64,000 bases of DNA, from NCBI GenBank assembly GCA_027858735.1, contig JAQICC010000262.1, forward strand, positions 1,879 through 65,878, in the 5' to 3' direction. A program made the translations under genes and the position numbers. This DNA comes from Salinivirgaceae bacterium (GTDB lineage: Bacteria; Bacteroidota; Bacteroidia; Bacteroidales; SZUA-534). Below the pieces are notes generated by a model, which did no database searches, was not told the DNA's origin, and saw only the letters and a list, made by a program, of their open reading frames with translations. Shown here piece by piece: positions 1-60,871 of the stretch; position 1 is the first letter of the stretch; each line of letters opens with the position of its first letter.

Positions 1-3000
1 TGGCCAAATATTTACAATTATTCCTTGATGGCGAATCTGTAACTGAAATTGCTGAAGGTCGCGTAAACGAGAAAAAAGACAAGGTCGTTTTCATCTTCTC
101 TGGTCAGGGTCCGCAATGGTGGGGTATGGGTCGTCAATTGTTCGAGAATGAACCTTTGTTTCGCACATGGATAGAAAAACTAGATGGAATGCTGGCTAAG
201 CATGCTGACTGGTCTTTAATTGAAGAACTAACAAAAGACGAAGAAACATCGCGCATTAGTCAAACCCATATTGCTCAGCCATCTATTTTTGCCGTTCAAA
301 TTGCATTGTTTGAAATGTGGAAAGCAATGGGTGTTCATCCCAAAGCTGTAGTCGGACATAGTATTGGTGAAGTAGCTGCTGGTTATGTTTCGGGCGCTCT
401 TACCTTAGAACAAGCTGTACTGCTAATTTTTCACAGAAGCCGTGTGCAGTTCAAAGCTACCGACAAAGGTCGCATGCTTGCAGTAGGTATTTCTCACGAA
501 GAAGCAAAAAAACTTATTGCCGGTAAAGAAGATAAAGTATCGGTTGGTGCTGTAAATGGCCCTGAAATGGTTGCGCTATCCGGCGATATCGATGTAATTG
601 AAGCAATTGCTGAAGACTTAAACGAAAGAGATATTTTTCACCGCATATTAGCCGTGAATGTTCCCTTCCACAGTCACCATATGGAACCACTAAAGGAGGA
701 GCTGTTGGCTTCACTTGGTGAGTTCAAAACCAAGCCTTCAACTATACCTTTCTACTCAACTGTAGCAGGTGGAATTGTAAAAGGTGAAGACCTTGATCCA
801 ATGTATTGGTTCCGTAACGTTCGCGAGCCTGTACTTTTCACCGATGCAATATCGGCTCAAATTGAAGATGGTTTCGACACTTTTATTGAACTGGGCCCCC
901 ATCCTATTCACGCAATTGGTGTTGAAGGATTGTTAGTCGACAAAAAGGTAAAAGGTCTGGTAATTCATTCGCTAAGAAGAAAAGATAACGAGAAAAAAAT
1001 ATTTCTTTCTTCTGTCGCTAAATTACATACCTGGGGTGTTGCAATAGATTGGAAAAACTTCTATGGAAACGACAATGGTTGGGTAGACTTGCCACGTTAC
1101 CCTTGGCAAAAAGAATCGTATTGGATAGAAAGCGTAGAAGGCAAAAAAACACGTTTAGGTGGTATTGAATTTGGTCATCCTCACCTTAACAAAAAAACCT
1201 CTTCTGCTCGCGAAAATAATAATATAGTTTGGGATGTAATATTGGACAAACGTACCTATCCATATCTCGAAGATCATAAAGTTCAGGGACCCATTGTATT
1301 CCCCGGAGCTGGTCACGTCGATCTTGTTATTGGTGCCGCAAAAGCTTCGTTCGGAGATAAGTTTGAATTTATTGAAGATTTAAACTTCGACAATGCATTG
1401 TTTCTTCCTGATTCTGGTGAGCCACCATTGATTCAAATGGATATATCGCACGATAGTGGTGATTATTTTATTTATTCTAAAGCAAGAAAGAAAGATGCTC
1501 CATGGACAATGTGCTCGAACGGAAAAATCAATCATATTGGCGATACCTTTAAGTCTATTCCTGTAGATTTTGAAGCTATAAAGAAACGTATTACCATTCC
1601 TGTGCCGGTTAAACCAATGCACGACGAACTGCTTGAAAGTGGTCTGTATTTAGGCCCATCATTCCGTGCTATTAAGAATTTATGGAGAAGCGATGGAAAC
1701 TGGGAATCGCTAAGCGAAATTGAAGTGCATGAAAGCATTCGATCAGAATTCCACCAATTTAATATACATCCGGGTGTTTTAGATAGCTGTTTCCAAACAG
1801 TATTTGGAATTTTCAATGAACGTGAGGATGTAAATAAAAAAATGGGGGTTTATGTTCCTCGTCATATCGATCGTATTAAATGGTATAACGATGTAAATTC
1901 CTTTAAACTATTTGTTCATGGCCGTTTAAGAGAGTGGACAGATGAAAAAGCAGTTGGCGAACTATGGATATTTAATGAAGATGGTTCTCTGGTAGCAGAA
2001 TTCCATGGTTTCCATTCTCAATACCTTAAGGGTTCTCGTGGAGAACAAGGTGGAGAGCAGGACAAATGGTTCTATGAGTACAACTGGAATATGAAATCCA
2101 GAGCCGATCAGGAACTAACACGTAATCCGGGTGATTATCTGTCCACTCCTACAGCAATTGCTCCTGGTGTTCTGGAAACAATTAATGAAGTAAAAAACAG
2201 ACCCGAACAAAACGAGTATTATAACAATTACGAGCCTAAGCAATATGACCTAACAATGGGCTACATCTGTAGATCATTAAAGGACATGGGCATGGCATTT
2301 GAAATTGGTGCCAAGGCAGATGTTGAAGAATTAATTGGCAAGATGGCCGTTATTGAGGAACATCATCGCCTGTTTCACCATATGTTTAAGTTATTGCACG
2401 ATGCCGGAATTGTTTCCGGTGCAGATGGTCATTTCGAAGTGATAAAGGCTCCGAATTTCCGCGACGTAACTTTGTGGATGGACGAATTGAATGGTCAATT
2501 CCCTCAGTTCCATCACGAATCAACTTTATTAGGCCGATGTGGACCTGAAATTCAAGGTGTATTGCAAGGAACGGTAGACCCAATTGAACTTATCTTCCCT
2601 GAAGACAAGTGGGATGCTATTGTGCAATATTATATTGAGGGTTTTGCGTTTAAAAAATACAATGATATTGCGAGCAAATCGATTGCAGAATTGATTAAAA
2701 ATGTTCCGGAAGATCAAACAATTCGAATACTGGAAATTGGTGCAGGAACTGGTGGTATGAGCCAGGCTATTTTACCAATGCTTCCAGCAGATAGAACCGA
2801 ATATGTATTTACCGACCTTTCGCATATGTTTATGTTAAAGGCTCAACAGCGTTTTGATAAGTATCCATTTGTGCAGTACAAGATTCTGGATATTGAACAG
2901 AATCCTGCTGAACAAGGTTTCGACTTAAATACTTTTGACATAATTATTGCTTCTGATGTTATCCATGCAACACGTAACCTTAGTGTTTCACTAGGAAATG

Positions 3001-6000
3001 CACAGAAATTATTGGCTTCTGAGGGTGTTTTAATGCTGTTAGAAGTAACCAACTCTCCAGTTTACCTTGATTTTATTTTTGGTATGACTGAAGGATGGTG
3101 GTTGTTCGAAGATCTTGATATCAGAACCGAGCATGCTACAATGGCTCCTGAGAAATGGAAATCGGTGCTTGAGAACAATGGATACAGCGATGTAGCTTGC
3201 TACAGCGATTATCCTAAAAATGACATTTCTTGTCAAACTGTAATCATGGCTCGTGCCGAAAAGTTAGACCTCGAAGCAATTAAAAGCGACGATGACGCCA
3301 AATTAGCTAAAGGTAACTGGCTTGTATTTGCCGATAATAATGGGGTGTCTGACAAGGTAATTGATCAACTGAGTGCATTAAACAAAACCTGCACGACCGT
3401 TAAAATTGGTGATGGCTTTAAAGAAACAGCAGCAGGTAAATTTACCGTTGATGCGCTTTCGCAAGACGATACCTCTAAGGTTTTAGACTTTGCCAATAAA
3501 CAAGAAAACTTCGAAGGCATCATTTATGCCTGGGGACTAGATCTTTTGGATGATGCAAAGCTTTCTGCAGAATCAATAGAGCAAGGCGAAAGCCAGGGAA
3601 CTATCACGATGTTGAACATCATGAAGAAGTTAAATGACACCTCGTTTAAGAAGAACCCAAGTATTTGGGTGCTGCTAAGTGGTTCGCAAACTGTAGCGGG
3701 CTCACCTGAACTGCTTAATTTAAGTCAGGAAGGTCTCCGTGGGGTTAGCCGTTGTATTGTAAACGAATTTCCAAATTATATTACCTCATTGGTAGATTTC
3801 AGTTGTCCTGTGCAGGATAAAGAGATTGAAGTATTTATAGATGAACTATTTGCGAATGACCATATTGACGAATTAGCATTTCGTGGCAGAAAGCGCTATG
3901 TGAATAAACTGGAGCGAATTTCTCCTGATAACATTCAACAACGTGCCATGAAATCTGTACCTGCTGAAGGTTCGGCATATTCTGCTACTATATCGGAATA
4001 CGGTGTTCTTGATAATATTGTTCTAAGAGAGACTGAGCGAAAAGTACCTGAGGCAAACGAAGTTGAAGTTACCGTTAAAGCATCTGCATTAAACTTCCGT
4101 GACATAATGATTGCCATGGGCTTGCTTTCGGATGCAGCTGTAGAAGGCGGTTTATTTGGTAAAACATTTGGATTAGAATGCGCCGGAATTGTTAGCGCTG
4201 TTGGATCGGATGTAAAAAATCTTAAAGTTGGCGACGAGGTTATGGCAACCGCGCCATCCTGTTTGGGCGGATTTGCTTATCCATTAGGCGCTCACTGTGT
4301 GAAAAAACCAAAGAATATTAATTGGAACGAAGCGGCCAGTTTACCGGTGGTGTATACTACAGCATATTTCTCGTTAGTATATCATTGTCGCCTTCAAAAA
4401 GATGAAACTATTCTAATTCATGCCGCTGCTGGTGGTGTTGGTATTGCTGCTATTCATATTGCTAACGCGATTGGGGCTGAAGTTTATGCTACTGTAAGTA
4501 CGCAAGAGAAACGCGATTATATAATCGGACTGGGTGTAAAACCGGAGAACATCATGAACTCCAGAACACTTTCTTTTGCCGATGAAATAATGGAGAAGAC
4601 CAATGGTGTAGGTGTGGATGTTGTATTAAACTCACTTTCGGGTGAGGCCATTTTCAAATCTGTTCGTTGTTTATCGGCTTATGGTCGTTTTGTAGAGATT
4701 GGTAAAACCGATATTTATAGAAACAGCAAACTTGGGTTGCAGCCTTTCGGTAATAACCTAAGCTACTTTGGTGTAGATGTTGACCGACTATTCAAGCAGA
4801 AAGCTGAATTTGGTGGTAATCTGTTCCAGGATTCAATCGATTATTTTGTTGAGCATGGTTTCAAACCGCATCCGGTTACCGTCTTCCCAATTGCCAAACT
4901 GGCTGATGCTTTCCAATTTATGGGTGGTGCAAGACATATTGGTAAGGTTATCGTTTCTATGGAAGACAAGGTAAATGTTTTACCTCAGGAAGAGATAAAA
5001 TTTGATGCGAATGGTACCTACATGATTACAGGTGGAGCATCTGGTCTTGGACTGGGTGTTGCTAACTGGATGACAACACGCGGGTGTAAGAATCTTGTTC
5101 TATTAAGCCGTAGCGGAACCAAAACCGAGGAAGAAGCTGCAATTGTTCAGTCAATGCTTGATAAGGGTGTTAAGGTAATGTTGGCCAAAGGAAGTGTCGA
5201 TAATCAAAACGATATGGATCGCATCTTTAAAGAAATTAAAGATACAATGCCGCCACTTAAAGGTATTCAGCATGCTGCTATGGTATTGGATGATGGCAGT
5301 ATTCCAGAAATGACACAAGAGCGCTATATGAGAGTCTTTAACCCCAAAGCTGTTGGGTGTTGGATATTACATGAAGCAACAAAAAATATGGATCTGGATC
5401 ATTTTCTTTCGTATTCATCAATTTCTGCGATCTATGGTAATCCGGGTCAGGTTAGTTACGTAGGAGCAAATAGTTTTCTTGATAATTTCTCCCACTGGAG
5501 AAGAGCTCAGGGGCTGCCTGCAACCACAATAAATTGGGGTGTAATTGGCGATGTAGGTTTTGTTGCACGTATAGGAAAAGTTGGCGGAAATGTCGATGAG
5601 CTTTTATACAAGCAAGGATGGAAATCTTTTTCATTGGTACAAGCAACTAGTATATTAGAGGGGATCTTATTAAGCAATCCTATTCAACGCGTTGCAACCG
5701 ATTCCGACTGGGAAATGATTGGAGATTTCTTCCCACATAGTGCAGAATCGAGTCGATTTGCACACTTGGTAAATGAAAACCAATTAGGCGGAGGATCAAG
5801 TGCTGGTTCTGGCGATGGTGCTCTAAAAGCAAATATTCTAGAAGCAAAACCTGAGAAACAAAACGAATTATTACTAAGTCATTTGAATGATACTTTTGCC
5901 CGTGTATTAGGAACCACTGCTGATAAGTTAGATGTCAGCGAGCCTGTTACCAAGTACGGACTAGATTCACTAATGGCAAATCAGATACGTAACTGGGTAC

Positions 6001-6908
6001 AAAGCAATGTGGGTATCGATTACTCCATGATGAAGATCATGCGTGGCCCTTCAATGGAAGAAATGACTGAGCAGATTCTTGATGAAATACTTGGTGGAGC
6101 TGCAATCGATGGCATCGAGGGTGAAGTTAAGAGTGAATTAGATAAGTGGATAATTAGAATCAAGAAGGTTGAAAATCCAAGACTACGCCTGTTCTGCCTA
6201 CCCTACTTTGCGGGAGGTGCTTCCATCTTTAATACATGGCATGAGTTATTGCCAGACGATATAGAAGTTTGCGCAATTCAGTTACCTGGTCGCGAAGAAA
6301 GAGGAGACGAGAAACCCTTCGATGATGTATTTGAATTAGCATCGAAACTTACTGAAGTAATGGAGCCTCTGTTAACTACTCCTTGTGCTTTTTATGCACA
6401 CAGTTCAGGTGCTGGTGTTGCTCTTGAATTAGCGCGCTACTTACGCAAGAATCTTGATGTACATCCTACCCGATTTATGGTTGGAGGATGGAGAGCGCCA
6501 CACTTAGAAAGTCCTTTTGAATTCCTTAATGCAATTAATGAAGACGAAGTATATAAGGAGAAGAATATCCCAAACATTAAAGGTCATCTTCGTTCTTTAG
6601 AGATTCCCGATTCTATAATCGATAACGATGCTGTATTTAATGAAATGCTGCCTGCATTGCGCGCAGATATTCTTCTTGGAAAGAAATACAAGTATTACGA
6701 TGAGGAGCCTCTTAACTGTCCATTAACAGCATTCGCAGGTAAGGATGATTCAGTTTTCTCAGAAGATCAAATAAAAGAATGGAGACAGCATACTTCAAAC
6801 AAATTCAAATTTGAAGTTATACAAGGAAGTCACCTATTCTGTAGAGATAATAAGGAGGAATTATTGAAGTATGTTACGGAGGAACTATCTGATTTAATCA
6901 GCAATTAA
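1..6908 (+). CDS. Type I polyketide synthase / FAS-like megasynthase, 5'-truncated by the window edge. Domains seen: AT-DH-CMeT-(structural linker)-ER-KR-ACP-TE
   Basis: The frame of ORF 126..6908 stays open back to nt 3 (AKYLQLFLDGESV...KVVFIFSGQGPQWWGMGRQL, the AT N-terminal GQGxQxxGMG motif), so the gene starts upstream of the window. Motifs: AT GHSIGE (nt ~354) and VPFHSHHM; DH HKVQGPIVFP (HxxxGxxxxP, nt ~1275) and HPGVLDSCFQ; SAM-MT LEIGAGTGG (nt 2730); ER ALNFRD and HAAAGGVGIAAI (nt 4419); KR ITGGASGLGLG (nt ~5025) and SYVGAN; ACP GLDSLM (Ser codon 5967-5969); TE AHSSG (Ser codon 6402-6404). Confidence 0.93.
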   Translation, partial: AKYLQLFLDGESVTEIAEGRVNEKKDKVVFIFSGQGPQWWGMGRQLFENEPLFRTWIEKLDGMLAKHADWSLIEELTKDEETSRISQTHIAQPSIFAVQIALFEMWKAMGVHPKAVVGHSIGEVAAGYVSGALTLEQAVLLIFHRSRVQFKATDKGRMLAVGISHEEAKKLIAGKEDKVSVGAVNGPEMVALSGDIDVIEAIAEDLNERDIFHRILAVNVPFHSHHMEPLKEELLASLGEFKTKPSTIPFYSTVAGGIVKGEDLDPMYWFRNVREPVLFTDAISAQIEDGFDTFIELGPHPIHAIGVEGLLVDKKVKGLVIHSLRRKDNEKKIFLSSVAKLHTWGVAIDWKNFYGNDNGWVDLPRYPWQKESYWIESVEGKKTRLGGIEFGHPHLNKKTSSARENNNIVWDVILDKRTYPYLEDHKVQGPIVFPGAGHVDLVIGAAKASFGDKFEFIEDLNFDNALFLPDSGEPPLIQMDISHDSGDYFIYSKARKKDAPWTMCSNGKINHIGDTFKSIPVDFEAIKKRITIPVPVKPMHDELLESGLYLGPSFRAIKNLWRSDGNWESLSEIEVHESIRSEFHQFNIHPGVLDSCFQTVFGIFNEREDVNKKMGVYVPRHIDRIKWYNDVNSFKLFVHGRLREWTDEKAVGELWIFNEDGSLVAEFHGFHSQYLKGSRGEQGGEQDKWFYEYNWNMKSRADQELTRNPGDYLSTPTAIAPGVLETINEVKNRPEQNEYYNNYEPKQYDLTMGYICRSLKDMGMAFEIGAKADVEELIGKMAVIEEHHRLFHHMFKLLHDAGIVSGADGHFEVIKAPNFRDVTLWMDELNGQFPQFHHESTLLGRCGPEIQGVLQGTVDPIELIFPEDKWDAIVQYYIEGFAFKKYNDIASKSIAELIKNVPEDQTIRILEIGAGTGGMSQAILPMLPADRTEYVFTDLSHMFMLKAQQRFDKYPFVQYKILDIEQNPAEQGFDLNTFDIIIASDVIHATRNLSVSLGNAQKLLASEGVLMLLEVTNSPVYLDFIFGMTEGWWLFEDLDIRTEHATMAPEKWKSVLENNGYSDVACYSDYPKNDISCQTVIMARAEKLDLEAIKSDDDAKLAKGNWLVFADNNGVSDKVIDQLSALNKTCTTVKIGDGFKETAAGKFTVDALSQDDTSKVLDFANKQENFEGIIYAWGLDLLDDAKLSAESIEQGESQGTITMLNIMKKLNDTSFKKNPSIWVLLSGSQTVAGSPELLNLSQEGLRGVSRCIVNEFPNYITSLVDFSCPVQDKEIEVFIDELFANDHIDELAFRGRKRYVNKLERISPDNIQQRAMKSVPAEGSAYSATISEYGVLDNIVLRETERKVPEANEVEVTVKASALNFRDIMIAMGLLSDAAVEGGLFGKTFGLECAGIVSAVGSDVKNLKVGDEVMATAPSCLGGFAYPLGAHCVKKPKNINWNEAASLPVVYTTAYFSLVYHCRLQKDETILIHAAAGGVGIAAIHIANAIGAEVYATVSTQEKRDYIIGLGVKPENIMNSRTLSFADEIMEKTNGVGVDVVLNSLSGEAIFKSVRCLSAYGRFVEIGKTDIYRNSKLGLQPFGNNLSYFGVDVDRLFKQKAEFGGNLFQDSIDYFVEHGFKPHPVTVFPIAKLADAFQFMGGARHIGKVIVSMEDKVNVLPQEEIKFDANGTYMITGGASGLGLGVANWMTTRGCKNLVLLSRSGTKTEEEAAIVQSMLDKGVKVMLAKGSVDNQNDMDRIFKEIKDTMPPLKGIQHAAMVLDDGSIPEMTQERYMRVFNPKAVGCWILHEATKNMDLDHFLSYSSISAIYGNPGQVSYVGANSFLDNFSHWRRAQGLPATTINWGVIGDVGFVARIGKVGGNVDELLYKQGWKSFSLVQATSILEGILLSNPIQRVATDSDWEMIGDFFPHSAESSRFAHLVNENQLGGGSSAGSGDGALKANILEAKPEKQNELLLSHLNDTFARVLGTTADKLDVSEPVTKYGLDSLMANQIRNWVQSNVGIDYSMMKIMRGPSMEEMTEQILDEILGGAAIDGIEGEVKSELDKWIIRIKKVENPRLRLFCLPYFAGGASIFNTWHELLPDDIEVCAIQLPGREERGDEKPFDDVFELASKLTEVMEPLLTTPCAFYAHSSGAGVALELARYLRKNLDVHPTRFMVGGWRAPHLESPFEFLNAINEDEVYKEKNIPNIKGHLRSLEIPDSIIDNDAVFNEMLPALRADILLGKKYKYYDEEPLNCPLTAFAGKDDSVFSEDQIKEWRQHTSNKFKFEVIQGSHLFCRDNKEELLKYVTEELSDLISN

Positions 6909-6919
6909 AACAGCTGAAA

Positions 6920-7648
6920 ATGGCAAATAACAAAGTTGCGGCCTGGAAAAATCTGGAAGACTTCCCTACTCTCTCTCATGGAGAAATTCATATTTGGCAA
7001 GTTTCTACAGATAATACTGCCACTAACTTTGTAGATTATACGGGTGCACTTTCGGAAGCTGAGCTTTCGAAAGTGCACTTTTTTGAATCTAAACATGCAA
7101 GGAATTCCTATGTAGCAAGTCAGGGTGCTTTAAGACAGTTATTGTCCGGATACCTGGGCATTTCACCAAAATTGGTGAATATTGGACGACAGAAAAAGGG
7201 GAAACCCTACTCTCTTGATTATGAAGGCCTGTATTTCAATTTATCCAATTCAGGAAACCTGGCCGTAATTGCTTTTTCGCGTGACAGTGAACTAGGAATT
7301 GATATTGAACAAATGCGGCATTTACCCGATTTGGACGAAATGATTCATACAAATTTCACAAGTAGCGAAATCAAGTTTATTAATACCAAACCAGAAGAAA
7401 GACTTAGGCGATTCTTTCGTTTCTGGACAGTAAAGGAGTCGTACTTGAAGGCCATTGGAGAAGGAATGCGATTAGCACCTGAAAATATTGAGTTTTCTAT
7501 GGATAATGAATCCATAAGACTGCTTTCTGTAAAGGGTGTTTCTGAACAGGAAGATTGGCACTTTAAGGAATTTTCTATATTAGCTGATTATGTGGGCACC
7601 CTTACTTACGATAAAGCCAATTCTATACTAATGCAAATGGAATTATAA
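6920..7648 (+). CDS. 4'-phosphopantetheinyl transferase, Sfp type
   Basis: 242 aa with GKPY, FNLSNSG, GIDIE and FWTVKESYLKAIG (the W/FxxKESxxK signature). It starts 12 nt after the PKS stop on the same strand. Confidence 0.88.
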   Translation: MANNKVAAWKNLEDFPTLSHGEIHIWQVSTDNTATNFVDYTGALSEAELSKVHFFESKHARNSYVASQGALRQLLSGYLGISPKLVNIGRQKKGKPYSLDYEGLYFNLSNSGNLAVIAFSRDSELGIDIEQMRHLPDLDEMIHTNFTSSEIKFINTKPEERLRRFFRFWTVKESYLKAIGEGMRLAPENIEFSMDNESIRLLSVKGVSEQEDWHFKEFSILADYVGTLTYDKANSILMQMEL

Positions 7649-7834
7649 TAATACCAAGCCATGCGGATCGCTTATTATAATTTCTATTTTTCTCTCAGTT
7701 ATCTGCCCTGATACCCTACAAGCTTATATATTTTACCGCCTTCCTATTTTATCTTCTATTACGTCATTCCTTACCGAAGGAAGATAATACGGCAAAACAT
7801 AGAACGCTCTTTTCCTAAATTAAGTGGAAAAAAA

Positions 7835-8644
7835 TTATTTTGAGGTGCTGATTAATTCAGCCTTAAAAATCGTAATAGCCTTGCCCCTAATTTCTACAGC
7901 ATCATTTTTCAATCTTACATTGAGCTTGCCGGTACGTTTAGAAAGTTGAAAAGAATTAAATTCGGTTTTGCCAGTTTTCTCATGCCATAAGGGAGTTAAA
8001 GCGCAATGCGCCGACCCTGTTACCGGATCTTCATTAATACCCGATAATGGAGCAAAACAACGTACTGCAAAATCAATATCATTTAAATCGCTTTCTGATG
8101 TTATTATTAAATGACCTAAGCTATTGCTAATTAGCCCTTCCAAATTCGGATTAGCTTCAACAATATCTTTTTCCGATGCTGCTACTGCAATTTTCCAATC
8201 GTATAGGCTTGAATACATTTCAATGGGTTCAAAACCAAGCAAATTTTTGAAAATAGTAGGAATTTCAATGCTTTTAAGCGGATATCTTGGGAAAGTCATA
8301 CAAATCCATTCCTCCTCCATCTTAATGCTTAAATCGCCCCCTCCTGCTTTAAATAATATATTCTCCTGCCTATCAACAATGCCTAATTCATATAAAATAT
8401 GTGCACTTGCCAATGTTGCATGCCCGCATAATGGTACTTCTTTAGTTGGTGTAAAGTACCTAATATTGAAATGATCAACATTTTTAGATATGAAGGCTGT
8501 TTCAGAAAGATTCATTTCCATGGCCATGTTTTGCATCCATTCTGTATCTGTTGTTTCATCAACAATCATCACTCCTGCAGGGTTTCCTTTGAATGGAACA
8601 TCAGTAAAAGCATCAACTTGGAATATAGTTTTATTAGGAGTCAT
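7835..8644 (-). CDS. PhzF-family isomerase (phenazine biosynthesis-like protein)
   Basis: 269 aa. The N-terminus IFQVDAFTDVPFKGNPAGV and the internal PLCGHATLA and DPVTGSAHC are typical PhzF/YddE family motifs. Confidence 0.85.
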   Translation of the reverse strand: MTPNKTIFQVDAFTDVPFKGNPAGVMIVDETTDTEWMQNMAMEMNLSETAFISKNVDHFNIRYFTPTKEVPLCGHATLASAHILYELGIVDRQENILFKAGGGDLSIKMEEEWICMTFPRYPLKSIEIPTIFKNLLGFEPIEMYSSLYDWKIAVAASEKDIVEANPNLEGLISNSLGHLIITSESDLNDIDFAVRCFAPLSGINEDPVTGSAHCALTPLWHEKTGKTEFNSFQLSKRTGKLNVRLKNDAVEIRGKAITIFKAELISTSK

Positions 8645-8721: not shown

Positions 8722-10728
8722 TTAAAAACCCAGTTTAAATACCAAAATATCTTGTTGTGGACTAAGCCTTGTAGTACTTACAATAGCAAAGTTTGCTTCA
8801 GCTGCAGTAATACCATTTAAAATTAAACCTCCAGGTAAATTAAATACCTTAGCTTCATTTACAGTTCCAGAAGCATCCACCTTTGCTATTATGACTTTAT
8901 CGTCAGCAGAAGTTCCAGCCAAAAGCACACCATTATCACCCAGTGGCGTTATCGATTCTACAATAGGAAGCTTTTTAGCATCAAAAGTCGATTCCCATAA
9001 TGTATTTCCCGATGCATCGTTAGCCATTACATAACCTTCCATTTCTTTAAGACCTGCAAATATTATATTCCCATTATTTGCAATGTTAACAGCGGTAATT
9101 TTAATTGCAGGATCCACAATTTTATCCCATTTTAAATAACCACTCTTATCAATAGCAAAATACCAAGTTTCATTTGCTACATAAGCTGTATTAGAGGCAT
9201 CTAAGGCCACTCCGTAAATAGTGCCACCCTGAGAATAATTCCTGCTCCAGAGTTTTCGGCCTCCTTCGTTCACTCGTATTAAAAATGGTTGCATAGTAGA
9301 ATCAGCTTCATTGTATGCATCGCCGCAAAGCAGTGCTTTACCATCAGGATAAAGAGCCAAACTTTTTACTTCGCTACCCTCAAGTTTATTGTTATAAATA
9401 TTTTTTCCATCGTCACCCATCTTAAACAACCAGGCTTTACCCGTGATGCTATCAATAACGGCATTGGTAATACCAGCAACATAAACCTCATTTGTCGGTG
9501 TTATTACCACCTTATTTACCTGATCATCAAATTTATTACCCAAAATATTATTATTAATCATTGTACCCTCAGCGTTCAATTCAAGGAACCATGCATCATA
9601 CATTGCATCTTTAGTAGCTTTCGTATTTGCGATTAATAATATCTCGCCATTAGGCCGAACAACAACATCTCCACCAAAGTCATTCATATTTTGATTATCA
9701 TAACCTTTTATAAACTTGTAGTTTTCCATTGGAAAGTCCATTAATACCTTTTGCCCCAGAGCTGTTGCTTTTAGGTTAAAAATATCGATATACATTTCGC
9801 CTTCGGGGTAAAGAGCAACGAATTTATTGTAGGCTTCAATCGTATTTACACTTTTCGCCCATTCAAATAATAACTGGCGGGTTAACACTTTAGCTTCAGG
9901 CATTTTGCTTGAATTTGGGTATTCGCGCATGAACTGTTCTATAATCTCTAAACTACGTGTTTTAGCTGCGTCTTTAAAAGCCAATACACCCATTAGTTTT
10001 TTGGCATCTTCCACCTGTTCAGCCTCAGGATATTGCGCAACAAAACCTTTTAGAGCCGATAAGCTATTTTTTGAGAGTGCATCTTTGTAGGCAATAGCGT
10101 TACGTTTTTTGTTGGCAACTTTTACTTGAGCCGCATCTGGGTACTTCTTTATAAAAGCGTTATAGGCTTCAACCGTATTTGTATTTTCAGCAGTACGGTA
10201 GTCAATATAATTGCGAATATGCTCTACGTTATTAACATACTTTGATTCAGGAAATTCTGCCAGAAATTTATTGGCGTATTCAAGTTTATTTTCCTCACGT
10301 ACAAACTTTATTAACTTTTCTTCAACAATACTGCTATACCACTCCATGTTTTTATTAATGGGCCTATTGCGTCTTCTTTTATCAACACGCGGAAAATATA
10401 GGTTTAATGTAGCTAAATCGTCGGGTGAAAATTGTGCTTGGTTTTTGTTAGCTACTTGAAAGTATTTCCAGGCTTCAAAATAGTTTCGTTTGCTATAAGT
10501 GTCATAGGAATAAACAATTGATAAGCCCAAACTGGCCATTGCATCATCTTTTTCTTTTGACAAGACTTTTAAAAATTGCTTCCTTGCTTTGTTCATATTG
10601 TCATCAATATCATCCTGATCTCGTGCATCCATGCCTTTAAAAACATCACCATCCATTACCTTATATGCTCTTTGAGCAGAAGCCGATAAGGTGAATAAAA
10701 CGAATATTACTAGGTATATATTTTTCAT
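8722..10728 (-). CDS. Secreted protein of unknown function, with helical repeats in the N-terminal half and a beta-rich C-terminal half
   Basis: Signal peptide MKNIYLVIFVLFTLSASAQ. The N-terminal half has recurring F(x)xxYP(E/D)xxx helical repeats (FLAEFPESKY, FIKKYPDAAQ, FVAQYPEAEQ, FMREYPNSSK, FVALYPEGEM). The C-terminal half has G/D/N-rich strand repeats that look propeller-like. No specific family recognised. Confidence 0.55.
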   Translation of the reverse strand: MKNIYLVIFVLFTLSASAQRAYKVMDGDVFKGMDARDQDDIDDNMNKARKQFLKVLSKEKDDAMASLGLSIVYSYDTYSKRNYFEAWKYFQVANKNQAQFSPDDLATLNLYFPRVDKRRRNRPINKNMEWYSSIVEEKLIKFVREENKLEYANKFLAEFPESKYVNNVEHIRNYIDYRTAENTNTVEAYNAFIKKYPDAAQVKVANKKRNAIAYKDALSKNSLSALKGFVAQYPEAEQVEDAKKLMGVLAFKDAAKTRSLEIIEQFMREYPNSSKMPEAKVLTRQLLFEWAKSVNTIEAYNKFVALYPEGEMYIDIFNLKATALGQKVLMDFPMENYKFIKGYDNQNMNDFGGDVVVRPNGEILLIANTKATKDAMYDAWFLELNAEGTMINNNILGNKFDDQVNKVVITPTNEVYVAGITNAVIDSITGKAWLFKMGDDGKNIYNNKLEGSEVKSLALYPDGKALLCGDAYNEADSTMQPFLIRVNEGGRKLWSRNYSQGGTIYGVALDASNTAYVANETWYFAIDKSGYLKWDKIVDPAIKITAVNIANNGNIIFAGLKEMEGYVMANDASGNTLWESTFDAKKLPIVESITPLGDNGVLLAGTSADDKVIIAKVDASGTVNEAKVFNLPGGLILNGITAAEANFAIVSTTRLSPQQDILVFKLGF

Positions 10729-12784: not shown

Positions 12785-13552
12785 ATGGCTATTATAATTA
12801 AAACACCTGAACAAATCGCGGGCATAAGAAAAAGCTCAAAATTAGCCGGGCAAACTTTGAATTTTATTGAACAGTATGTTAAATCTGGTGTTAATACGGA
12901 ATATCTCGATAATTTAATTCATGATTATATGCGCGATCATGGTGCTATTCCTGCAACTTTGGGCTATAATGGTTATCCTAAATCATCGTGTATATCGCCC
13001 AACAATGTTATTTGCCATGGAATACCTTCAGAAAATGTTATTCTTAAAGAGGGTGATATTATTAATATTGATGTTACCACCATATTAGATGGATATTTTG
13101 GTGATACAAGTCGTATGTATGCCATTGGTGAAATTTCGACCGAGGCCCAATCATTAATGGATACTACAAAACATTGTTTAGACCTGGGAATTCAGCAGGT
13201 GGGACCTAAAAGTACGTTTGGTAATATTGGTTTTGCCATTAGCCGATACGCTCAAGCTAAAGGCTATAGTGTAGTTTACGAATTTTGTGGTCATGGTGTT
13301 GGTCTTCAGTTTCATGAGGAACCTCAGGTAGATCATATTGCCCGTAGAAACAGTGGACAAGTTATGAAACCGGGTATGATTTTCACCATTGAGCCGATGA
13401 TAAATATGGGAAAAGCAAGGGTGAAAATTGATGAAAAAGATGGATGGACCGCTCGGACTATTGATAATAAACTGTCGGCTCAATACGAGCATACCATATT
13501 AGTTACAACCGAGGGTTTTGATATACTTACCGATGTAAATGGTGAATATTAA
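12785..13552 (+). CDS. map: Type I methionine aminopeptidase
   Basis: 255 aa. Motifs ICHGIP, DIINIDVT, GDTSRMY, FCGHGVG, FTIEPM and QYEHT match the MetAP-I metal ligands and fold. Confidence 0.93.
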   Translation: MAIIIKTPEQIAGIRKSSKLAGQTLNFIEQYVKSGVNTEYLDNLIHDYMRDHGAIPATLGYNGYPKSSCISPNNVICHGIPSENVILKEGDIINIDVTTILDGYFGDTSRMYAIGEISTEAQSLMDTTKHCLDLGIQQVGPKSTFGNIGFAISRYAQAKGYSVVYEFCGHGVGLQFHEEPQVDHIARRNSGQVMKPGMIFTIEPMINMGKARVKIDEKDGWTARTIDNKLSAQYEHTILVTTEGFDILTDVNGEY

Positions 13553-14385
13553 AAATTACTACTTTTCTCTGATAAATAATTAGTAACCAGTGAATTAAAC
13601 TCCTGTATTATAGTACGCAATATTCTACTTTGAGTATCAAACTTATATTTGTTTATAGAACAAATGGGTAAAATGCCTATTGAAGTTCCACATAAAAATG
13701 CAGCATCTACATTTTTCAAATTTTGAGTTTTAAGCAATGATTCTGAAATTTTGTAATGGAGATTTGTTATTGACTTCAAAGCATATTTTTTGGTAATACC
13801 GGGTAATACAGTTTTTAAAGGAGCCGTAAATATCTGCTCCCCCTTAATAAAAATGACATTGCTCCTGCTACCCTCTGTAATTTCACCATTACCATTTTTA
13901 AGCAATACTTCAAAAACGGAATGCTCTTTAAGGTATTTGTTTGCTTTTATTCTTGTTTGGGTATGTTTTATTTTAGCTTGAGGATTTATCCTTTCTGCCT
14001 CCATTATTGCTATGTTTACACCTTGAATATATTGTATTGCATTTGGATACCTATGAGGAATAAATCCCATTGCATGTTCAATTTTACCTGAGGTGTCTTT
14101 AAAAACCCGAAGCTCAATATTACCATATTCTTTGTTATTTGCTTTGCAAATTTCTAAAGCTTGAGCATGTAAAATCTGAGAATTAATGATAAAGCCTTTA
14201 ATCCCAGCTAGATTTAATGAATTTTCTAATCTTTCAACATGATCATCGAAAAATAATGGAATGCTTGAAATTATTTTAAAAACCTCATAAACAGAAATAT
14301 CAACTTCAACGGAACTTTCTTGGGTCGTTTCAAGTAATTTATTTCCGGAAAAATAGAATGCGTCAGAAAAATTAGAAGAAACCAT
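13549..14385 (-). CDS. Class IV aminotransferase family protein (branched-chain aminotransferase / aminodeoxychorismate lyase-like)
   Basis: 278 aa. EITEGSRSNVIFIKGEQIFTAP and VLPGITKK resemble the fold-type IV PLP enzyme signature. The exact substrate cannot be called. Confidence 0.7.
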   Translation of the reverse strand: MVSSNFSDAFYFSGNKLLETTQESSVEVDISVYEVFKIISSIPLFFDDHVERLENSLNLAGIKGFIINSQILHAQALEICKANNKEYGNIELRVFKDTSGKIEHAMGFIPHRYPNAIQYIQGVNIAIMEAERINPQAKIKHTQTRIKANKYLKEHSVFEVLLKNGNGEITEGSRSNVIFIKGEQIFTAPLKTVLPGITKKYALKSITNLHYKISESLLKTQNLKNVDAAFLCGTSIGILPICSINKYKFDTQSRILRTIIQEFNSLVTNYLSEKSSNF

Positions 14386-15731
14386 TACTTTTCAATAATT
14401 TCAGATAGTTTCTGAACGGTGTCGTCCCAATTATATTTTAAGTTTAACCAGGTTCCATTTTTCATAATCTTCCATATACTTACCTTTGTTTTCACCCAAG
14501 TTTTTTTGAATCCTATAAAATATCGAAAACTTAAAATTCCGAAAAGGAATATACTTATAAATATGCCAATAGCAAGATACCACGGCTTTACAAATACGAG
14601 TAATAAGATAATATATATAAGATAAAATATTAAAAATGTAGCCATTGCAACTGAAAAACGAATAGAACTGACAAATTGAGGATCCTTAATTTTTCGTGAT
14701 ACCAAAACCGGAATGTAAAAAGGAAGAAAATTAGCCACTACCCCATAAATAAAAAATGGAAACAGAACAGCAAGTAACATATAGTTAAAAACTATTTCTA
14801 ACCAATAGTGCCTTTTTTGAGCCACAACCCATTTTCTAATACCAAATTCCTTTACTGTATCTTTTATTTCTAAGGCTGTTTTGCAAAGTTTTTCAAACTC
14901 ATCAAACGAATCTGCTTTATACTCTATCAAGCTATCTGAAATTTCCTGCGATTTTACTATAATTTTCTGATGATCATCCTTTAGTTTTCGTTTAGCTAAT
15001 AAATCTTGAATATAAATATTCTTTAAAGCCTCTATTTGATCATAATGCTCAGAGTCCTCAATATGTAACATTTGTGGGAGCATCTTTTCCCTTAGCTCCT
15101 GTAAAAATAAATTCATGCCCCTTTGCGGATTTTCTTTGTATTGATCTTTAAAATTGCTAAGAGAAAAAGGTTCTCCAAAATGAACCAATAAATCGGCACC
15201 AAAATTAATGTAGTTTGTATAGTCTACTCCTACAGGTACTATCTGAACATCTAAGTTAAAATCGTTTCTTTCTTCTGCTTGAAAAGCAATACGTGCAATT
15301 CCTTTTTTAAGAATTCTTAATTTTCGTTCGCCAAAATGATTTCCTTCAGGTAGTATGCCTAGTCTGCCTTTACCTTCAAGAATGCTAATAGCTTCTTCAA
15401 AAACAGCATCATTATTCTGAAGACTTTTTATTCCATCGCGAATGCGAAAAACCGGTAGCATTTTAAAAAAGCGTAAAATTTTTGCAATTTTTTCACTTTT
15501 AAATACATCAGCTCTTGCCATAAAAACTGATGGTCCTTTAAGAGCACATATTACATTTAAAGGATCCATCAAAGCATTTTGATGGTTGATAGCTAATATT
15601 ACAGGTTTATCTTTAGGCACTTTATTACTGCCAACCACAGTAACCTTATCATAAAAGAAATGTATATAAGTTTTGACATAGTTCTGTACTATATTTTGCC
15701 AAAAATCAAATTCGTGAATAGGTTTCTTCAT
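14385..15731 (-). CDS. Lysophospholipid (1-acyl-sn-glycerol-3-phosphate) acyltransferase family protein with a C-terminal membrane domain
   Basis: HX4D motif NHQNALMDP and PEGN motif (ILPEGNHFGER). The C-terminal ~120 aa are strongly hydrophobic, with multiple TM helices. Confidence 0.8.
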   Translation of the reverse strand: MKKPIHEFDFWQNIVQNYVKTYIHFFYDKVTVVGSNKVPKDKPVILAINHQNALMDPLNVICALKGPSVFMARADVFKSEKIAKILRFFKMLPVFRIRDGIKSLQNNDAVFEEAISILEGKGRLGILPEGNHFGERKLRILKKGIARIAFQAEERNDFNLDVQIVPVGVDYTNYINFGADLLVHFGEPFSLSNFKDQYKENPQRGMNLFLQELREKMLPQMLHIEDSEHYDQIEALKNIYIQDLLAKRKLKDDHQKIIVKSQEISDSLIEYKADSFDEFEKLCKTALEIKDTVKEFGIRKWVVAQKRHYWLEIVFNYMLLAVLFPFFIYGVVANFLPFYIPVLVSRKIKDPQFVSSIRFSVAMATFLIFYLIYIILLLVFVKPWYLAIGIFISIFLFGILSFRYFIGFKKTWVKTKVSIWKIMKNGTWLNLKYNWDDTVQKLSEIIEK

Positions 15732-15749
15732 TATTAAAAAAGTTGAAAG

Positions 15750-16685
15750 TTATTTTTGTAATAGAAGTCTATACGACCAAATGCTCGACACCGTTAGCCC
15801 GGAAATAATATGCCAGATTCCCCATAAAGCAGCAATAAAAGCCATTCCTCCTATTCCATTGAATAAATTTGGATTAAATATTAGCACCAAGGCTAAACCT
15901 GAATTTTGTATGCCTGTTTCAATGGTTATGGTTCTTACATCTTGTCGTTTTAGTTTAAAAAGCCGTGCAAGAGAATATCCGGTTAAAAATGCTAAAGCAT
16001 TATGAATTAGTACAATTATGAATATTAAATGAATATATTCTAAAAAATAGTTGAAATTTTTGCCTAAGGCTATAACGACATAGCTTCCAAATATAATCAA
16101 CGATAGTATTTTAATTGGTTTTAGAATTTTCTTAGTAATTAACGGAAAATACCTCGAAAAAGTCATACCAATAGTTAATGGCATTCCCAATAGTATAATC
16201 ATCGTTTTCATCATCTCAAAAAGATCAATCTCAACCGGAATTATCATATTTGATGCATTGGAATAAAAACGGGCATACATACCGCCCCAAAAAGCAAAGT
16301 TAAAAGGAGTCATTATAACCGCAGAAATATCAGCAATTGCAGTAAGGCTAACCGATAGTTCGGTATTTCCTCTTGCATGATTCGTCATAAAGTTAGAAAG
16401 ATTTCCACCCGGACAGGCAGCAACCAAAATCATTCCTAAAGCAACACCTGGAGTTGGATTAATGATAAGCACCAATAAAAAGGTTAAAAAAGGCATAACC
16501 AAAAACTGGGCTGCAACTCCAAGCATAGTGGATTTAGGAAACATAAACACATGCTTAAAACGTTCTACTTTAAGTTCTAAAGCAACCCCAAACATAATAA
16601 AGGCAATAGTTATATTCAGCAGTTTTAAGCTGTCAGAACTAAAGTTTAATCGTATAGTGTCGAGTACCTCTAAGCCTTCAAACAT
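15750..16685 (-). CDS. Bile acid:sodium symporter (BASS) family transporter
   Basis: 311 aa polytopic membrane protein. VAACPGGNLSNFMT and ETGIQNSGLA motifs are typical of the BASS/SBF family. Confidence 0.85.
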   Translation of the reverse strand: MFEGLEVLDTIRLNFSSDSLKLLNITIAFIMFGVALELKVERFKHVFMFPKSTMLGVAAQFLVMPFLTFLLVLIINPTPGVALGMILVAACPGGNLSNFMTNHARGNTELSVSLTAIADISAVIMTPFNFAFWGGMYARFYSNASNMIIPVEIDLFEMMKTMIILLGMPLTIGMTFSRYFPLITKKILKPIKILSLIIFGSYVVIALGKNFNYFLEYIHLIFIIVLIHNALAFLTGYSLARLFKLKRQDVRTITIETGIQNSGLALVLIFNPNLFNGIGGMAFIAALWGIWHIISGLTVSSIWSYRLLLQK

Positions 16686-18267: not shown

Positions 18268-19215
18268 TTAGCTAAATAGTGAATCTACAAATTCAAGTCG
18301 ATTAAAAACTTGAAGGTCCTCCATACCTTCCCCAATACCAATGTATTTTACCGGTATTTTAAACTGATCAGATATGCCAATAACTACACCACCTTTAGCA
18401 GTACCATCAAGTTTGGTGAGGGCTAAGGCTGAAACGTCAGTGGCTTTAGTAAATTGTTTGGCTTGTTCAAAGGCATTTTGGCCTGTTGAGCCATCTAAAA
18501 CAAGCAACACTTCATGTGGAGCTTCAGGAATATGCTTCTGCATTACCATTTTAACCTTTGAAAGTTCATTCATAAGATTAATTTTATTATGAAGACGACC
18601 TGCAGTATCAATGAGTACAACATCGGCATTGTTTTTCATGGCCGATTCAATGGTATCAAAAGCTACCGATGCAGGATCGGATCCCATTTTTTGCTTAATT
18701 AAGGGTACACCGACTCTTTGGGCCCAAATTTCAAGTTGATCAATTGCAGCTGCTCTAAAAGTATCGGCAGCACCAATATAAACGCTTTTACCTGCCTTTT
18801 TAAACTGATGGGCTAATTTGCCAATAGTTGTCGTTTTTCCCACACCATTAACTCCCACAACCATAATTACATAGGGTACATTATTTTTTGTGGTTGGTAT
18901 CGATACTTCGGTTAAATCATTTGAATTGTTCTCTTGCAGTAATTCAGCTATTTCTTCCTTTAGCATTACACTGAGCTCGCTGGTACCTATATATTTATCA
19001 TTTGAAACCCTAGTTTCAATACGTTCAATAATTTTTAAAGTAGTGTCAACACCAACATCAGAAGTAATTAGCACCTCTTCAAGATTATCTAAAACCTCAA
19101 CATCAACCGACGTTTTTCCAACAACCCCTCTCGATAGTTTTTTAAAAACACTTTCTTTGGTTTTAGCCAAACCTTTATCGAGATTTTCTTTTTTTTTACT
19201 TGAAAACAAGCCCAT
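18268..19215 (-). CDS. ftsY: Signal recognition particle receptor FtsY
   Basis: 315 aa. GVNGVGKTTTIGKLA (G1), DTAGRL, TKLDGTAKGG and the SRP54-type NG domain. Confidence 0.95.
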   Translation of the reverse strand: MGLFSSKKKENLDKGLAKTKESVFKKLSRGVVGKTSVDVEVLDNLEEVLITSDVGVDTTLKIIERIETRVSNDKYIGTSELSVMLKEEIAELLQENNSNDLTEVSIPTTKNNVPYVIMVVGVNGVGKTTTIGKLAHQFKKAGKSVYIGAADTFRAAAIDQLEIWAQRVGVPLIKQKMGSDPASVAFDTIESAMKNNADVVLIDTAGRLHNKINLMNELSKVKMVMQKHIPEAPHEVLLVLDGSTGQNAFEQAKQFTKATDVSALALTKLDGTAKGGVVIGISDQFKIPVKYIGIGEGMEDLQVFNRLEFVDSLFS

Positions 19216-25030: not shown

Positions 25031-25120
25031 ATCAGATATAATATGCTATTTTTGTAATTGTCAGTTTGGTGACAAATTTCGAGCACCAAAACTAATGAAT
25101 TTTTAAAGTTTTTGAGGTAT

Positions 25121-26239: not shown

Positions 26240-26309
26240 CTACCAATATTTTTTTAATTACCCAGCTAAATAGTTTGTCATACATATATATTATATAGAA
26301 TAATTTTAA

Positions 26310-60782: not shown

Positions 60783-60856
60783 GGTCGCGTAGCTCAGCTG
60801 AATAGAGCAATAGCCTTCTAAGCTATGGGTCCCAGGTTTGAGTCCTGGCGCGATCA
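60783..60856 (+). tRNA. tRNA-Arg (anticodon TCT)
   Basis: Hand-folded 74-nt cloverleaf. Acceptor GGTCGCG/CGCGATC. D arm GCTC-AGCTGAATA-GAGC. Anticodon arm ATAGC-CTTCTAA-GCTAT, with TCT in the loop centre. Variable loop GGGTC. T arm CCAGG-TTTGAGT-CCTGG. Discriminator base A. Confidence 0.93.
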
Positions 60857-60871
60857 CTTCTAAAAAGCAAG

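Follow-up and report, generated by a model that had tools for sequence, protein, structure and literature searches.

A single-module, fully reducing type I polyketide synthase and its adjacent phosphopantetheinyl transferase in a Salinivirgaceae bacterium: domain organization, relatives and possible link to envelope lipids

Introduction

Mycobacteria build multi-methyl-branched saturated fatty acids for their envelope lipids with mycocerosic acid synthase (MAS), an iterative single module with a full reducing loop that has FadD-type ligases and acyltransferases as partners. Mycobacterial polyketide synthases (PKSs) are primed by FadD enzymes with a preformed fatty acid. The fungal highly reducing PKSs and Dictyostelium PKS16 have an active C-methyltransferase domain (CMeT) and also work iteratively. 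Bacteroidota normally use type II fatty acid synthase (FAS). The subject of this analysis is a PKS gene at the left end of a 64,000-nucleotide stretch of DNA (the window) from a Salinivirgaceae bacterium (GenBank assembly GCA_027858735.1, contig JAQICC010000262.1, positions 1,879 to 65,878), together with the gene of a phosphopantetheinyl transferase (PPTase) that follows it. We consider it reasonably likely that this two-gene unit, a 2805-residue single-module fully reducing PKS and its PPTase, works iteratively and yields a saturated methyl-branched fatty acid; such a product is probably destined for envelope lipids.

Dedicated acyl-chain systems are found beside lipid acyltransferases elsewhere. 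The rhizobial AcpXL/LpxXL system provides very-long-chain fatty acids to an acyltransferase of the LpxL family, whose members attach secondary chains to lipid A. Bacterial aminolipids are formed by N-acylation and then O-acylation by enzymes of the LPLAT (lysophospholipid acyltransferase) family (PMC11631085). Sponge symbionts carry the monomodular enzymes SupA and SwfA, small bacterial PKS/FAS proteins that are proposed to make methyl-branched fatty acids and are biochemically uncharacterised (PMC4245539, PMC3908369, PMC9864124). SwfA consists of ketosynthase (KS), acyltransferase (AT), dehydratase (DH), enoylreductase (ER), ketoreductase (KR) and acyl carrier protein (ACP) domains, in that order, without CMeT or thioesterase (TE), and its partners are a reductase-sulfotransferase and a radical SAM protein (PMC3908369). 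A literature search found no paper on the bacterial PKS family described here, and queries by domain order returned fungal papers only.

Domain organization and catalytic motifs

The PKS reading frame is open on the forward strand from base 3 of the window to a stop codon at 6906-6908, and its 5′ part lies beyond the left end of the window. Based on Pfam matches, the following parts can be assigned, with residue numbers of the window translation.

3..6908, forward strand: C-terminal part of a 2805-residue single-module type I PKS, 2301 codons and stop, equal to residues 505-2805 of the database protein P0001
87..1043, forward strand: AT domain, residues 29-347 (PF00698, 1.1e-75), with GHSIGE, the Arg in FHRSRV, and VPFH
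1176..2030, forward strand: DH domain, residues 392-676 (PF21089 and PF14765), with HKVQGPIVFP and DSCFQ
2205..3194, forward strand: CMeT domain with an N-terminal helical lid (HTH_51), residues 735-1064 (PF18558, PF08242, PF13489), with LEIGAGTGG, DVIHAT and TEGWW
3312..3803, forward strand: structural ketoreductase subdomain (psiKR), residues 1104-1267 (PF21394, a weak match at 7.7e-5)
4053..4955, forward strand: ER domain, residues 1351-1651 (PF08240, PF00107, PF13602), with HAAAGGVG
5013..5546, forward strand: KR domain of B-type (LDD) with Ser/Tyr/Asn, residues 1671-1848 (PF08659, 1.4e-59)
5868..6086, forward strand: ACP domain, residues 1956-2028 (PF00550, PF23297), with GLDSL
6186..6875, forward strand: TE domain of the type II TE lineage, residues 2062-2291 (PF00975, 3.3e-30), with AHSSG and GSHLF

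This is the order AT-DH-CMeT-ER-KR-ACP-TE given in a preliminary description of the window, with the psiKR subdomain added between CMeT and ER. The first 504 residues, to the left of the window, form the KS and part of the KS-AT linker, and the order of the full protein is KS-AT-DH-CMeT-psiKR-ER-KR-ACP-TE.

The upstream part of the gene can be followed in two further assemblies of the same organism, L001 and L002, which were found by an exact match to the PPTase gene. L002 is identical to the window over 9457 nt, while L001 extends 1.7 kb further to the left. In L001, on which alone the upstream boundary of the gene is based, the reading frame begins MTKREPIAIIGMGCRYPG, carries the DTACSSS, HGTGT and NIGH motifs of a KS, and is preceded by 306 nt of AT-rich non-coding DNA ahead of the start codon. 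A gap of 27 N in L001 at the KS-AT linker is bridged by P0001 (labelled by NCBI as from a Salinivirgaceae metagenome-assembled genome, MAG), which has 2805 residues, is identical to the window translation over residues 505-2805, and has its KS from residue 5. An exact look-up of the full P0001 sequence for more upstream DNA returned no record.

The KS that had been presumed to lie just upstream is thus present in both L001 and P0001. A multi-module assembly line upstream, which had been named as the finding that would speak against a single iterative enzyme, is not seen, since the KS starts at residue 5 and non-coding DNA comes before it. The protein has no loading domain and no further modules, and no conserved second PKS was found in the flanks of 75 related loci. 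Because one module carries a complete reducing loop and a TE, we infer that the PKS is a single-module enzyme of the iterative type, presumably used over several cycles.

With KS, AT, DH, ER, KR and ACP on one polypeptide and their catalytic residues intact, the protein has all the features of a type I fully reducing PKS. All diagnostic motifs, which had already been described as intact in the window, including the S-adenosylmethionine (SAM) motif LEIGAGTGG, are kept across an alignment of 56 full-length relatives. In the KS these are the Cys and both His residues, and in the AT the GHSIGE motif and the Arg. The DH keeps HxxxGxxxxP and DxxxQ, the ER keeps HAAAGGVG, and the KR keeps its NADPH loop, LDD and Ser/Tyr/Asn, while the ACP and TE keep GLDSL, xHSxG and GxHLF. 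The CMeT likewise keeps LEIGAGTGG, the DVIHAT His and the TEGWW Glu (TEGWW in 56 of 56), and the three motifs align with those of the PKS C-methyltransferases of CurJ (5thy) and PksCT (5mpt). From structural work on CurJ, this His-Glu pair is presumably the catalytic pair.

All 56 relatives have VPFH or VAFH as the specificity motif of the AT. By the rule applied in PMC3908369, an xAFH motif indicates malonyl-CoA. With an AT of the malonyl type, methyl branches would come from SAM and not from methylmalonyl-CoA.

Sequence affinities

When the whole protein is compared with solved structures, MAS is the best relative (1000 bits), followed by DEBS constructs, PKS16 (821), LovB (696) and animal FAS (685-693). 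When only the KS is compared, CurL ranks first (450 bits), followed by PikA (417), Pks13 (about 398), DEBS (about 378), PKS16 (375), MAS (366-369), LovB (326) and animal FAS (305-314). Among solved structures, the CMeT has its best relative in the C-methyltransferase of CurJ (241 bits), and the alignment brings the SAM motif, the His and the Glu of the two into register. For the TE the best matches are not the TE of FAS but two free-standing type II thioesterases, RedJ (119 bits) and RifR (116 bits), followed by mammalian TE II and M. tuberculosis TesA. It has the marks of the type II lineage (PF00975, AHSSG and GSHLF), although it is fused in cis and not free-standing.

None of the equivalog cut-offs of NCBIfam is reached by the PKS; the best match is Pks2 (Pks2_ls1_myc), with 1230 bits against a cut-off of 2400. 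The protein also departs from the MAS-like PKSs in its AT motif, which is VPFH/VAFH and not of the YASH type, and in the presence of a CMeT. It departs from animal FAS in its KS score, given above beside that of CurL, and in its intact CMeT motifs. Three other families were considered and rejected because their domain order and best matches do not fit: polyunsaturated fatty acid synthase (PfaA scores 381 bits against a cut-off of 1010), enediyne PKS and heterocyst-glycolipid synthase.

On these affinities the PKS is a bacterial cis-AT-type module standing alone. The term animal-FAS-like, under which it was first described, fits the shared megasynthase architecture and the domain order; it does not fit the lineage, as judged from the nearest relatives of the KS, CMeT and TE.

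Family, distribution and selection

A protein search finds about 75 clusters with 63-90% identity, nearly all of 2790-2830 residues, from Bacteroidota MAGs labelled Flavobacteriales, Crocinitomicaceae, Bacteroidales, Cyclobacteriaceae and others. Remoter full-length relatives (37-50%) occur in Spirochaetota, Chitinispirillaceae, Polyangia, Deltaproteobacteria, Nostoc/Tolypothrix and Nocardia. In a scan of species-representative genomes, 362 stretches were confirmed, and 75 loci with flanks were obtained. In public annotation these PKSs of about 2800 residues (P0001 and its relatives) are named "SDR family NAD(P)-dependent oxidoreductase", which hides them from keyword searches. Two loci, L043 and L055 (JBLFXO01), come from a MAG labelled Arenicella sp.; their PKS halves are 75-78% identical to the Bacteroidota family, and they also carry PPTase, ligase and PlsC-like genes. 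Their presence in a MAG labelled as a gammaproteobacterium is probably due to mis-binning, or otherwise to transfer between phyla.

The PKS has a dN/dS of 0.042 against the two closest loci, L015 and L003, at a dS of about 1.6, which is saturated, so that the ratio is blind to a recent relaxation of constraint. Individual domains range from 0.02 to 0.11, with the CMeT at 0.033, the TE at 0.039 and the psiKR highest at 0.109. Against the same two loci the PKS has 89-90% amino-acid identity, while the adjacent PPTase has only 61-66%. By these comparisons the PKS is unusually constrained and under strong purifying selection.

Very high conservation of this kind is typical of primary metabolism, and together with a domain order identical to that of animal FAS including the TE, and with an AT of the malonyl type, it would suit an explanation built on the likeness of the PKS to animal FAS. 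We regard that explanation as very improbable. The SAM motif, His and Glu of the CMeT are present in all 56 relatives, the CMeT is under the same constraint as the catalytic domains, the family is patchy in Bacteroidota, and separate cousins without a CMeT exist. One such cousin is a 2421-residue protein of Aureibacter tunicatorum and another is P0101, with 2409 residues.

The Aureibacter protein is encoded on the plasmid pAT1 (L080, 5444-13456), is about 40% identical to the PKS, has a PPTase gene adjacent, and covers the query in two pieces, which is consistent with a missing CMeT. Further cousins are found on megaplasmids of Persicobacter psychrovividus and Fulvitalea axinellae, which are, like Aureibacter tunicatorum, cultured and tractable organisms. 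A plasmid search found only such cousins, with 39-42% identity, on Persicobacteraceae megaplasmids, and no close relative. In its architecture the PKS of the window is a canonical, though uncharacterised, member of the iterative highly reducing type I PKSs.

The PPTase gene and the gene neighbourhood in relatives

The second gene of the unit follows directly.

6920..7648, forward strand: Sfp-type PPTase of 242 residues (PF22624 and PF01648), 11 nt after the PKS stop

The protein is two-lobed, with AASDHPPT_N and ACPS domains in its 242 residues, as expected of the Sfp type, and its best NCBIfam match is HetI, under the equivalog cut-off of that family. An adjacent, dedicated PPTase had been proposed earlier; the proposal stands, although the spacer is 11 nt rather than the 12 nt then given. 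In other loci the two genes overlap by up to 13 nt or lie as much as about 50 nt apart, and in L078, whose PKS is 88% identical, 349 nt separate the PKS stop from the PPTase start (18418-18767). A scan for promoters and terminators around the PPTase gene gave nothing better than shuffled sequence. Within the PPTase reading frame, positions 7044-7078 of the window form a near-perfect palindrome of 17+17 nt (GTGCACTTTCGGAAGCT / AGCTTTCGAAAGTGCAC, coding GALSEAELSKVH), which is not conserved in the PPTase genes of 24 relatives and is thus lineage-specific.

To compare neighbourhoods, reading frames were called in all loci and clustered, and occurrences were counted over those 40 Bacteroidota-type loci whose downstream sequence is 4.5 kb or longer.

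PPTase directly after the PKS: 38/40 loci
AMP-binding ligase of 590 residues, with FadD11 as best NCBIfam match: 24/40 loci
387-residue protein without a Pfam match (tandem GNAT): 13/40 loci
LpxL-like protein of the Lip_A_acyltrans family (PF03279): 9/40 loci
PlsC-type acyltransferase: 7/40 loci
PKS and PPTase only: 11/40 loci

On the basis of its adjacency in 38 of the 40 loci, the PPTase is inferred to convert the ACP of the neighbouring PKS to the holo form. The 387-residue cluster protein has no match in Pfam or NCBIfam, while more than 5000 homologues are named GNAT by their sources. Its structural model (pLDDT 82) is most similar in fold to the tandem GNAT of the clavulanate pathway, to glucosamine N-acetyltransferase and to MshD, and the protein is identified on this predicted structure as a tandem GNAT acyltransferase. 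The full five-gene series of PKS, PPTase, LpxL-like protein, ligase and GNAT is present in L079, whose PKS is 89% identical to that of the window. In the loci of Polyangia, Deltaproteobacteria and Chitinispirillaceae the neighbour is an adenylating enzyme of the GH3 family, and in the Nocardia loci the neighbours are AMP ligases and a flavin halogenase.

A carboxylate-activating enzyme thus stands beside a TE-bearing PKS, in Bacteroidota together with lipid-type acyltransferases. Since the ligase and these acyltransferases (LpxL-like, PlsC-like and tandem GNAT) recur in relatives, the neighbourhood points to installation of the chain in an envelope or amino lipid. The unit had earlier been called self-contained, and the conserved PKS-PPTase pair bears this out; however, most relatives have it in a larger cluster with ligase and acyltransferases, and the window holds a scar of their loss.

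The same ligase can be read in another way, as in a primer extension of the MAS style, in which an acid from type II FAS is activated by the FadD-like ligase, placed on the KS, lengthened by no more than one or a few methyl-branched C2 units and released by the TE. Several features agree with this: mycobacterial MAS and Pks2, which work so, are the best whole-protein matches in PDB and NCBIfam comparisons, the extra neighbour seen most often across phyla is an adenylating enzyme, the best NCBIfam match of the ligase is FadD11, and the PKS is without a loading domain. However, the window locus and ten others are without the ligase and still have an intact PKS, and activation of the product fits equally well where the ligase lies downstream of a TE-bearing PKS together with acyltransferases. 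Primer extension of this kind is possible, but we consider it unlikely.

The window also encodes a 448-residue PlsC-type acyltransferase (14385-15731), between a class IV aminotransferase and an SBF-family transporter (13549-16685, reverse strand). It is 27% identical to the acyltransferase directly after the PKS cluster of L011, and a lipid link is possible but unproven.

An acyltransferase relic in the window

Between the PPTase gene and the convergent PhzF gene lies a spacer of 186 nt, which translates MRIAYYNFYFSLSYLP*YPTSLYILPPSYFIFYYVIPYRRKIIRQNIERSFPKLS and contains a remnant of one of the partner genes.

7661..7825, forward strand: relic of an LpxL-like (Lip_A_acyltrans) gene, first 55 codons, with an in-frame TGA at 7709-7711

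The relic can be aligned, codon by codon, to the N-terminal part of the LpxL-like proteins in L003 and L015, and a tblastn comparison with the gene of the relatives gives 70% identity over 27 residues. Homology to L015, L003 and L079, in both DNA and protein, stops at 7822-7825, about 10 nt before the PhzF stop codon (7835-7837). The intact orthologues of L007, L015 and L079 match PF03279 and are about 290 residues in full length, while the relic falls short of a full-length PF03279 protein. Because it is identical in L001 and L002, the relic is not an assembly artefact. An inverted repeat of 22 nt (6889-6910 and 7839-7860, 82% complementary), in which the 3′ ends of the PKS and PhzF genes share CTGAxTTAATCAGCA, brackets the PPTase gene and the relic beside the deletion junction; it may be due to chance.

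Since a stub of 55 codons remains after the PPTase gene, the lineage must once have had at least an LpxL-like gene at this place, the rest of the downstream genes having been lost by deletion. The stub with its in-frame stop, and the absence of the ligase and GNAT genes that the 89%-identical L079 still has, could also be taken to mean that the whole locus is decaying, with a PKS that became useless when its partners were lost and is on its way to a pseudogene. Decay is very unlikely, since the PKS has kept a reading frame of 8.4 kb without a stop in a genome of 34% G+C, all of its catalytic motifs are intact, the sequence is identical in three independent assemblies, and eleven loci of other lineages likewise have only PKS and PPTase.

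Base composition, flanking genes and the question of acquisition

In sliding windows the G+C content is 0.39-0.41 over the first 7 kb and 0.30-0.35 in most of the window. Values for the two genes and for the other 42 open reading frames (ORFs), in total and by codon position (GC1 to GC3), are as follows.

GC: PKS 0.403, PPTase 0.383, other 42 ORFs 0.340 +/- 0.023
GC1: PKS 0.531, PPTase 0.465, other 42 ORFs 0.439
GC2: PKS 0.355, PPTase 0.346, other 42 ORFs 0.321
GC3: PKS 0.324, PPTase 0.337, other 42 ORFs 0.260 +/- 0.027

The compositional shift that had been suspected from hand counts therefore persists in a proper calculation (0.403 against 0.340). The values expected for the amino acids of each gene, given the codon usage of the other window genes, are a GC of 0.380 and a GC3 of 0.270 for the PKS and a GC3 of 0.277 for the PPTase. 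Of the PKS excess of 0.063, about 0.040 (about 63%) is thus due to amino-acid composition and about 0.023 (37%) is synonymous; GARP residues (Gly, Ala, Arg and Pro) make up 22.6% of the PKS against 18.5%. None of 5000 contiguous blocks of 2302 codons from the other genes reaches the GC3 of the PKS, the maximum being 0.283.

The atypical synonymous composition is a mark of genomic islands, and it would suit a recently acquired foreign island in which the PKS and PPTase make a secondary metabolite unrelated to the core lipids of the host. The GC3 of both genes (0.324 and 0.337) exceeds expectation, and no block of PKS length comes near it. The flanks have no synteny to any relative, even at 88-90% PKS identity. 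Members of the family are scattered over several phyla and span GC3 values of 0.23 to 0.95, and while the PKS has matches of 83-90% identity, those of the neighbouring PhzF do not exceed 69%. However, most of the G+C excess comes from amino-acid content, and across 54 related loci the PKS is richer in G+C than its flanks in 91%, which indicates a property of the protein. In the family the GC3 of the PKS follows that of the host and equals that of the flanks in most Bacteroidota loci, with the PKS of the window at the upper end of the contrast among relatives (z = +2.1). Neither the dS of about 1.6 nor the co-located PPTase, at just 61-66% identity, points to a recent donor, and constraint accounts for the 90% identity of the PKS. 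Plasmid relatives reach at most 42% identity.

Other marks of an island are absent. On the available, downstream side of the unit there is no integrase, transposase, flanking tRNA or repeat boundary, nor was a near-identical copy found in unrelated genomes or on plasmids, and the flanking genes are housekeeping genes (MsrB, Map, FtsY and LptD). The sole RNA gene that Rfam finds in the 64 kb, a tRNA-Arg(TCT) at 60783-60857 on the forward strand, is far from the PKS unit. At 22358-27557 the window has genes for the envelope and for outer-membrane lipids, namely those of LptD (890 residues), an N-acetylmuramoyl-L-alanine amidase and an MlaD-domain protein; the surroundings of the PKS are ordinary core chromosome. 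A 668-residue TPR/PQQ-like ORF (8722-10728, reverse strand) is intact in the window and in L002, while the gene calls of L001 (10399-12404) split it into one gene of 190 and another of 482 residues, owing to a strain-level indel or an assembly error.

No gene of the window has an orthologue within 10 kb on either side in 77 related loci; only paralogue-level matches of 25-42% occur, and an apparent OmpA/aminotransferase synteny with L078 was dropped after its identities were checked. An empty-site test through PhzF finds its nearest homologues only 69% identical, too distant for a synteny argument. The lack of shared synteny with relatives cuts both ways on acquisition. Of the horizontal acquisition first proposed, then, the compositional shift stands, while recent transfer is weakly supported, given the amino-acid effect, the lack of mobility genes and the high dS. 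It is likely that the PKS family has spread laterally in the course of evolution; that this genome acquired it recently is possible, with a modest signal at synonymous sites as its sole support. The full proposal of a foreign island making an unrelated metabolite is distinctly unlikely.

Proposed pathway and significance

In the pathway that we favour, an iterative PKS making a saturated methyl-branched acid, the PPTase would first make holo-ACP. Malonyl units would be loaded by the AT and condensed by the KS, and in every cycle or in some of them the CMeT would use SAM to methylate the α-carbon of the β-ketoacyl-ACP. Full reduction of the unit by the B-type KR, DH and ER would follow, and the cycle would repeat until the cis-fused type II-like TE hydrolyses the finished saturated methyl-branched acid. 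Such a product would be similar to mycocerosate, except that its branches come from SAM rather than from methylmalonyl-CoA. In the relatives, the acid would be adenylated or thioesterified, and GNAT, LpxL-like or PlsC-like enzymes would then attach it to an acceptor that is probably an envelope lipid. In the window genome, because the downstream genes have been deleted while the PKS-PPTase core is intact, the product would have to stay a free acid or go to enzymes encoded elsewhere.

Several points weigh against this pathway. Iterativity, chain length, number of methylations and starter unit cannot be read from sequence, and no family member with a known product was found. The ligase, LpxL-like, PlsC-like and GNAT partner genes are absent from the 64-kb window, and in the 11 of 40 loci that have only PKS and PPTase, including a whole clade at about 65% identity, the same holds; therefore the lipid-transfer genes are not obligatory partners. 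It is just as conceivable that the ligase supplies the PKS with a preformed fatty acid as primer and does not activate its product. The saturation of dS, noted above, limits what the selection values say of the recent past.

Beyond the reading of the domains, the analysis adds the conserved lipid-acylation context in the relatives, the strong constraint on the PKS, and the relic that marks a trimmed cluster; the window itself is mostly ordinary, with a canonical iterative PKS, a PPTase and a small acyltransferase relic. A wider proposal is that the whole family is a type I megasynthase route to SAM-methylated, mycocerosate-like chains for a structural envelope lipid, either as a secondary chain of lipid A or in an aminolipid, and does not belong to secondary metabolism. 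We put this forward tentatively and regard it as more doubtful than the iterative pathway itself. If it is true, the route is shared by uncultured Bacteroidota of marine and sediment habitats and by some Spirochaetota, Fibrobacterota and Myxococcota, and the window shows a synthase that persists after the loss of its lipid-transfer genes. Should the inferred chemistry be right, a dedicated megasynthase for methyl-branched fatty acids would exist in many uncultured Bacteroidota, with consequences for how branched-lipid biomarkers from marine and sediment samples are interpreted and for the envelope biology of non-model organisms. The defined architecture, the conserved neighbourhood and the cultured cousins without a CMeT (Aureibacter, Persicobacter and Fulvitalea) provide a starting point for experiments.

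Comparison with known systems

Animal FAS has the same linear order as the PKS of the window, including a domain of methyltransferase fold and a C-terminal TE. It is, however, the lowest-scoring megasynthase reference, its methyltransferase domain is degenerate while the CMeT of the window is intact, and the TE of the window is of the type II lineage, with RedJ, RifR and mammalian TE II. The fungal highly reducing PKSs, represented by LovB, and Dictyostelium PKS16 share the order KS-AT-DH-CMeT-(psiKR)-ER-KR-ACP. They are eukaryotic and of lower similarity, and most are without a TE in cis. CurL and CurJ, from the cyanobacterial cis-AT modular PKS of curacin, are the nearest solved single domains for the KS and the CMeT, respectively. 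They are parts of a multi-module line, whereas the PKS of the window is a lone module that includes an ER and a TE and has no other PKS gene beside it.

The Sup and Swf enzymes of sponge symbionts are the nearest concept in the literature to the family described here, SupA being likened to it by description and not by sequence; unlike them, the PKS family of the window is not sponge-specific. The AcpXL/LpxXL and aminolipid systems have in common a dedicated maker of acyl chains clustered with an acyltransferase of the LpxL or PlsC family, a layout that the relatives of the window locus share. In the AcpXL/LpxXL system the chain is made by discrete type II enzymes, while here there is a type I megasynthase with a TE, and in the window the acyltransferase is only a relic.

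MAS, together with Pks2, is the best whole-protein match both among solved structures and in NCBIfam. MAS itself has no CMeT and no TE and takes its branches from methylmalonyl-CoA, while the PKS of the window has an AT of the malonyl type, a CurJ-like CMeT and a fused TE. If the wider proposal is true, the family would be a convergent Gram-negative counterpart of the mycobacterial MAS system.

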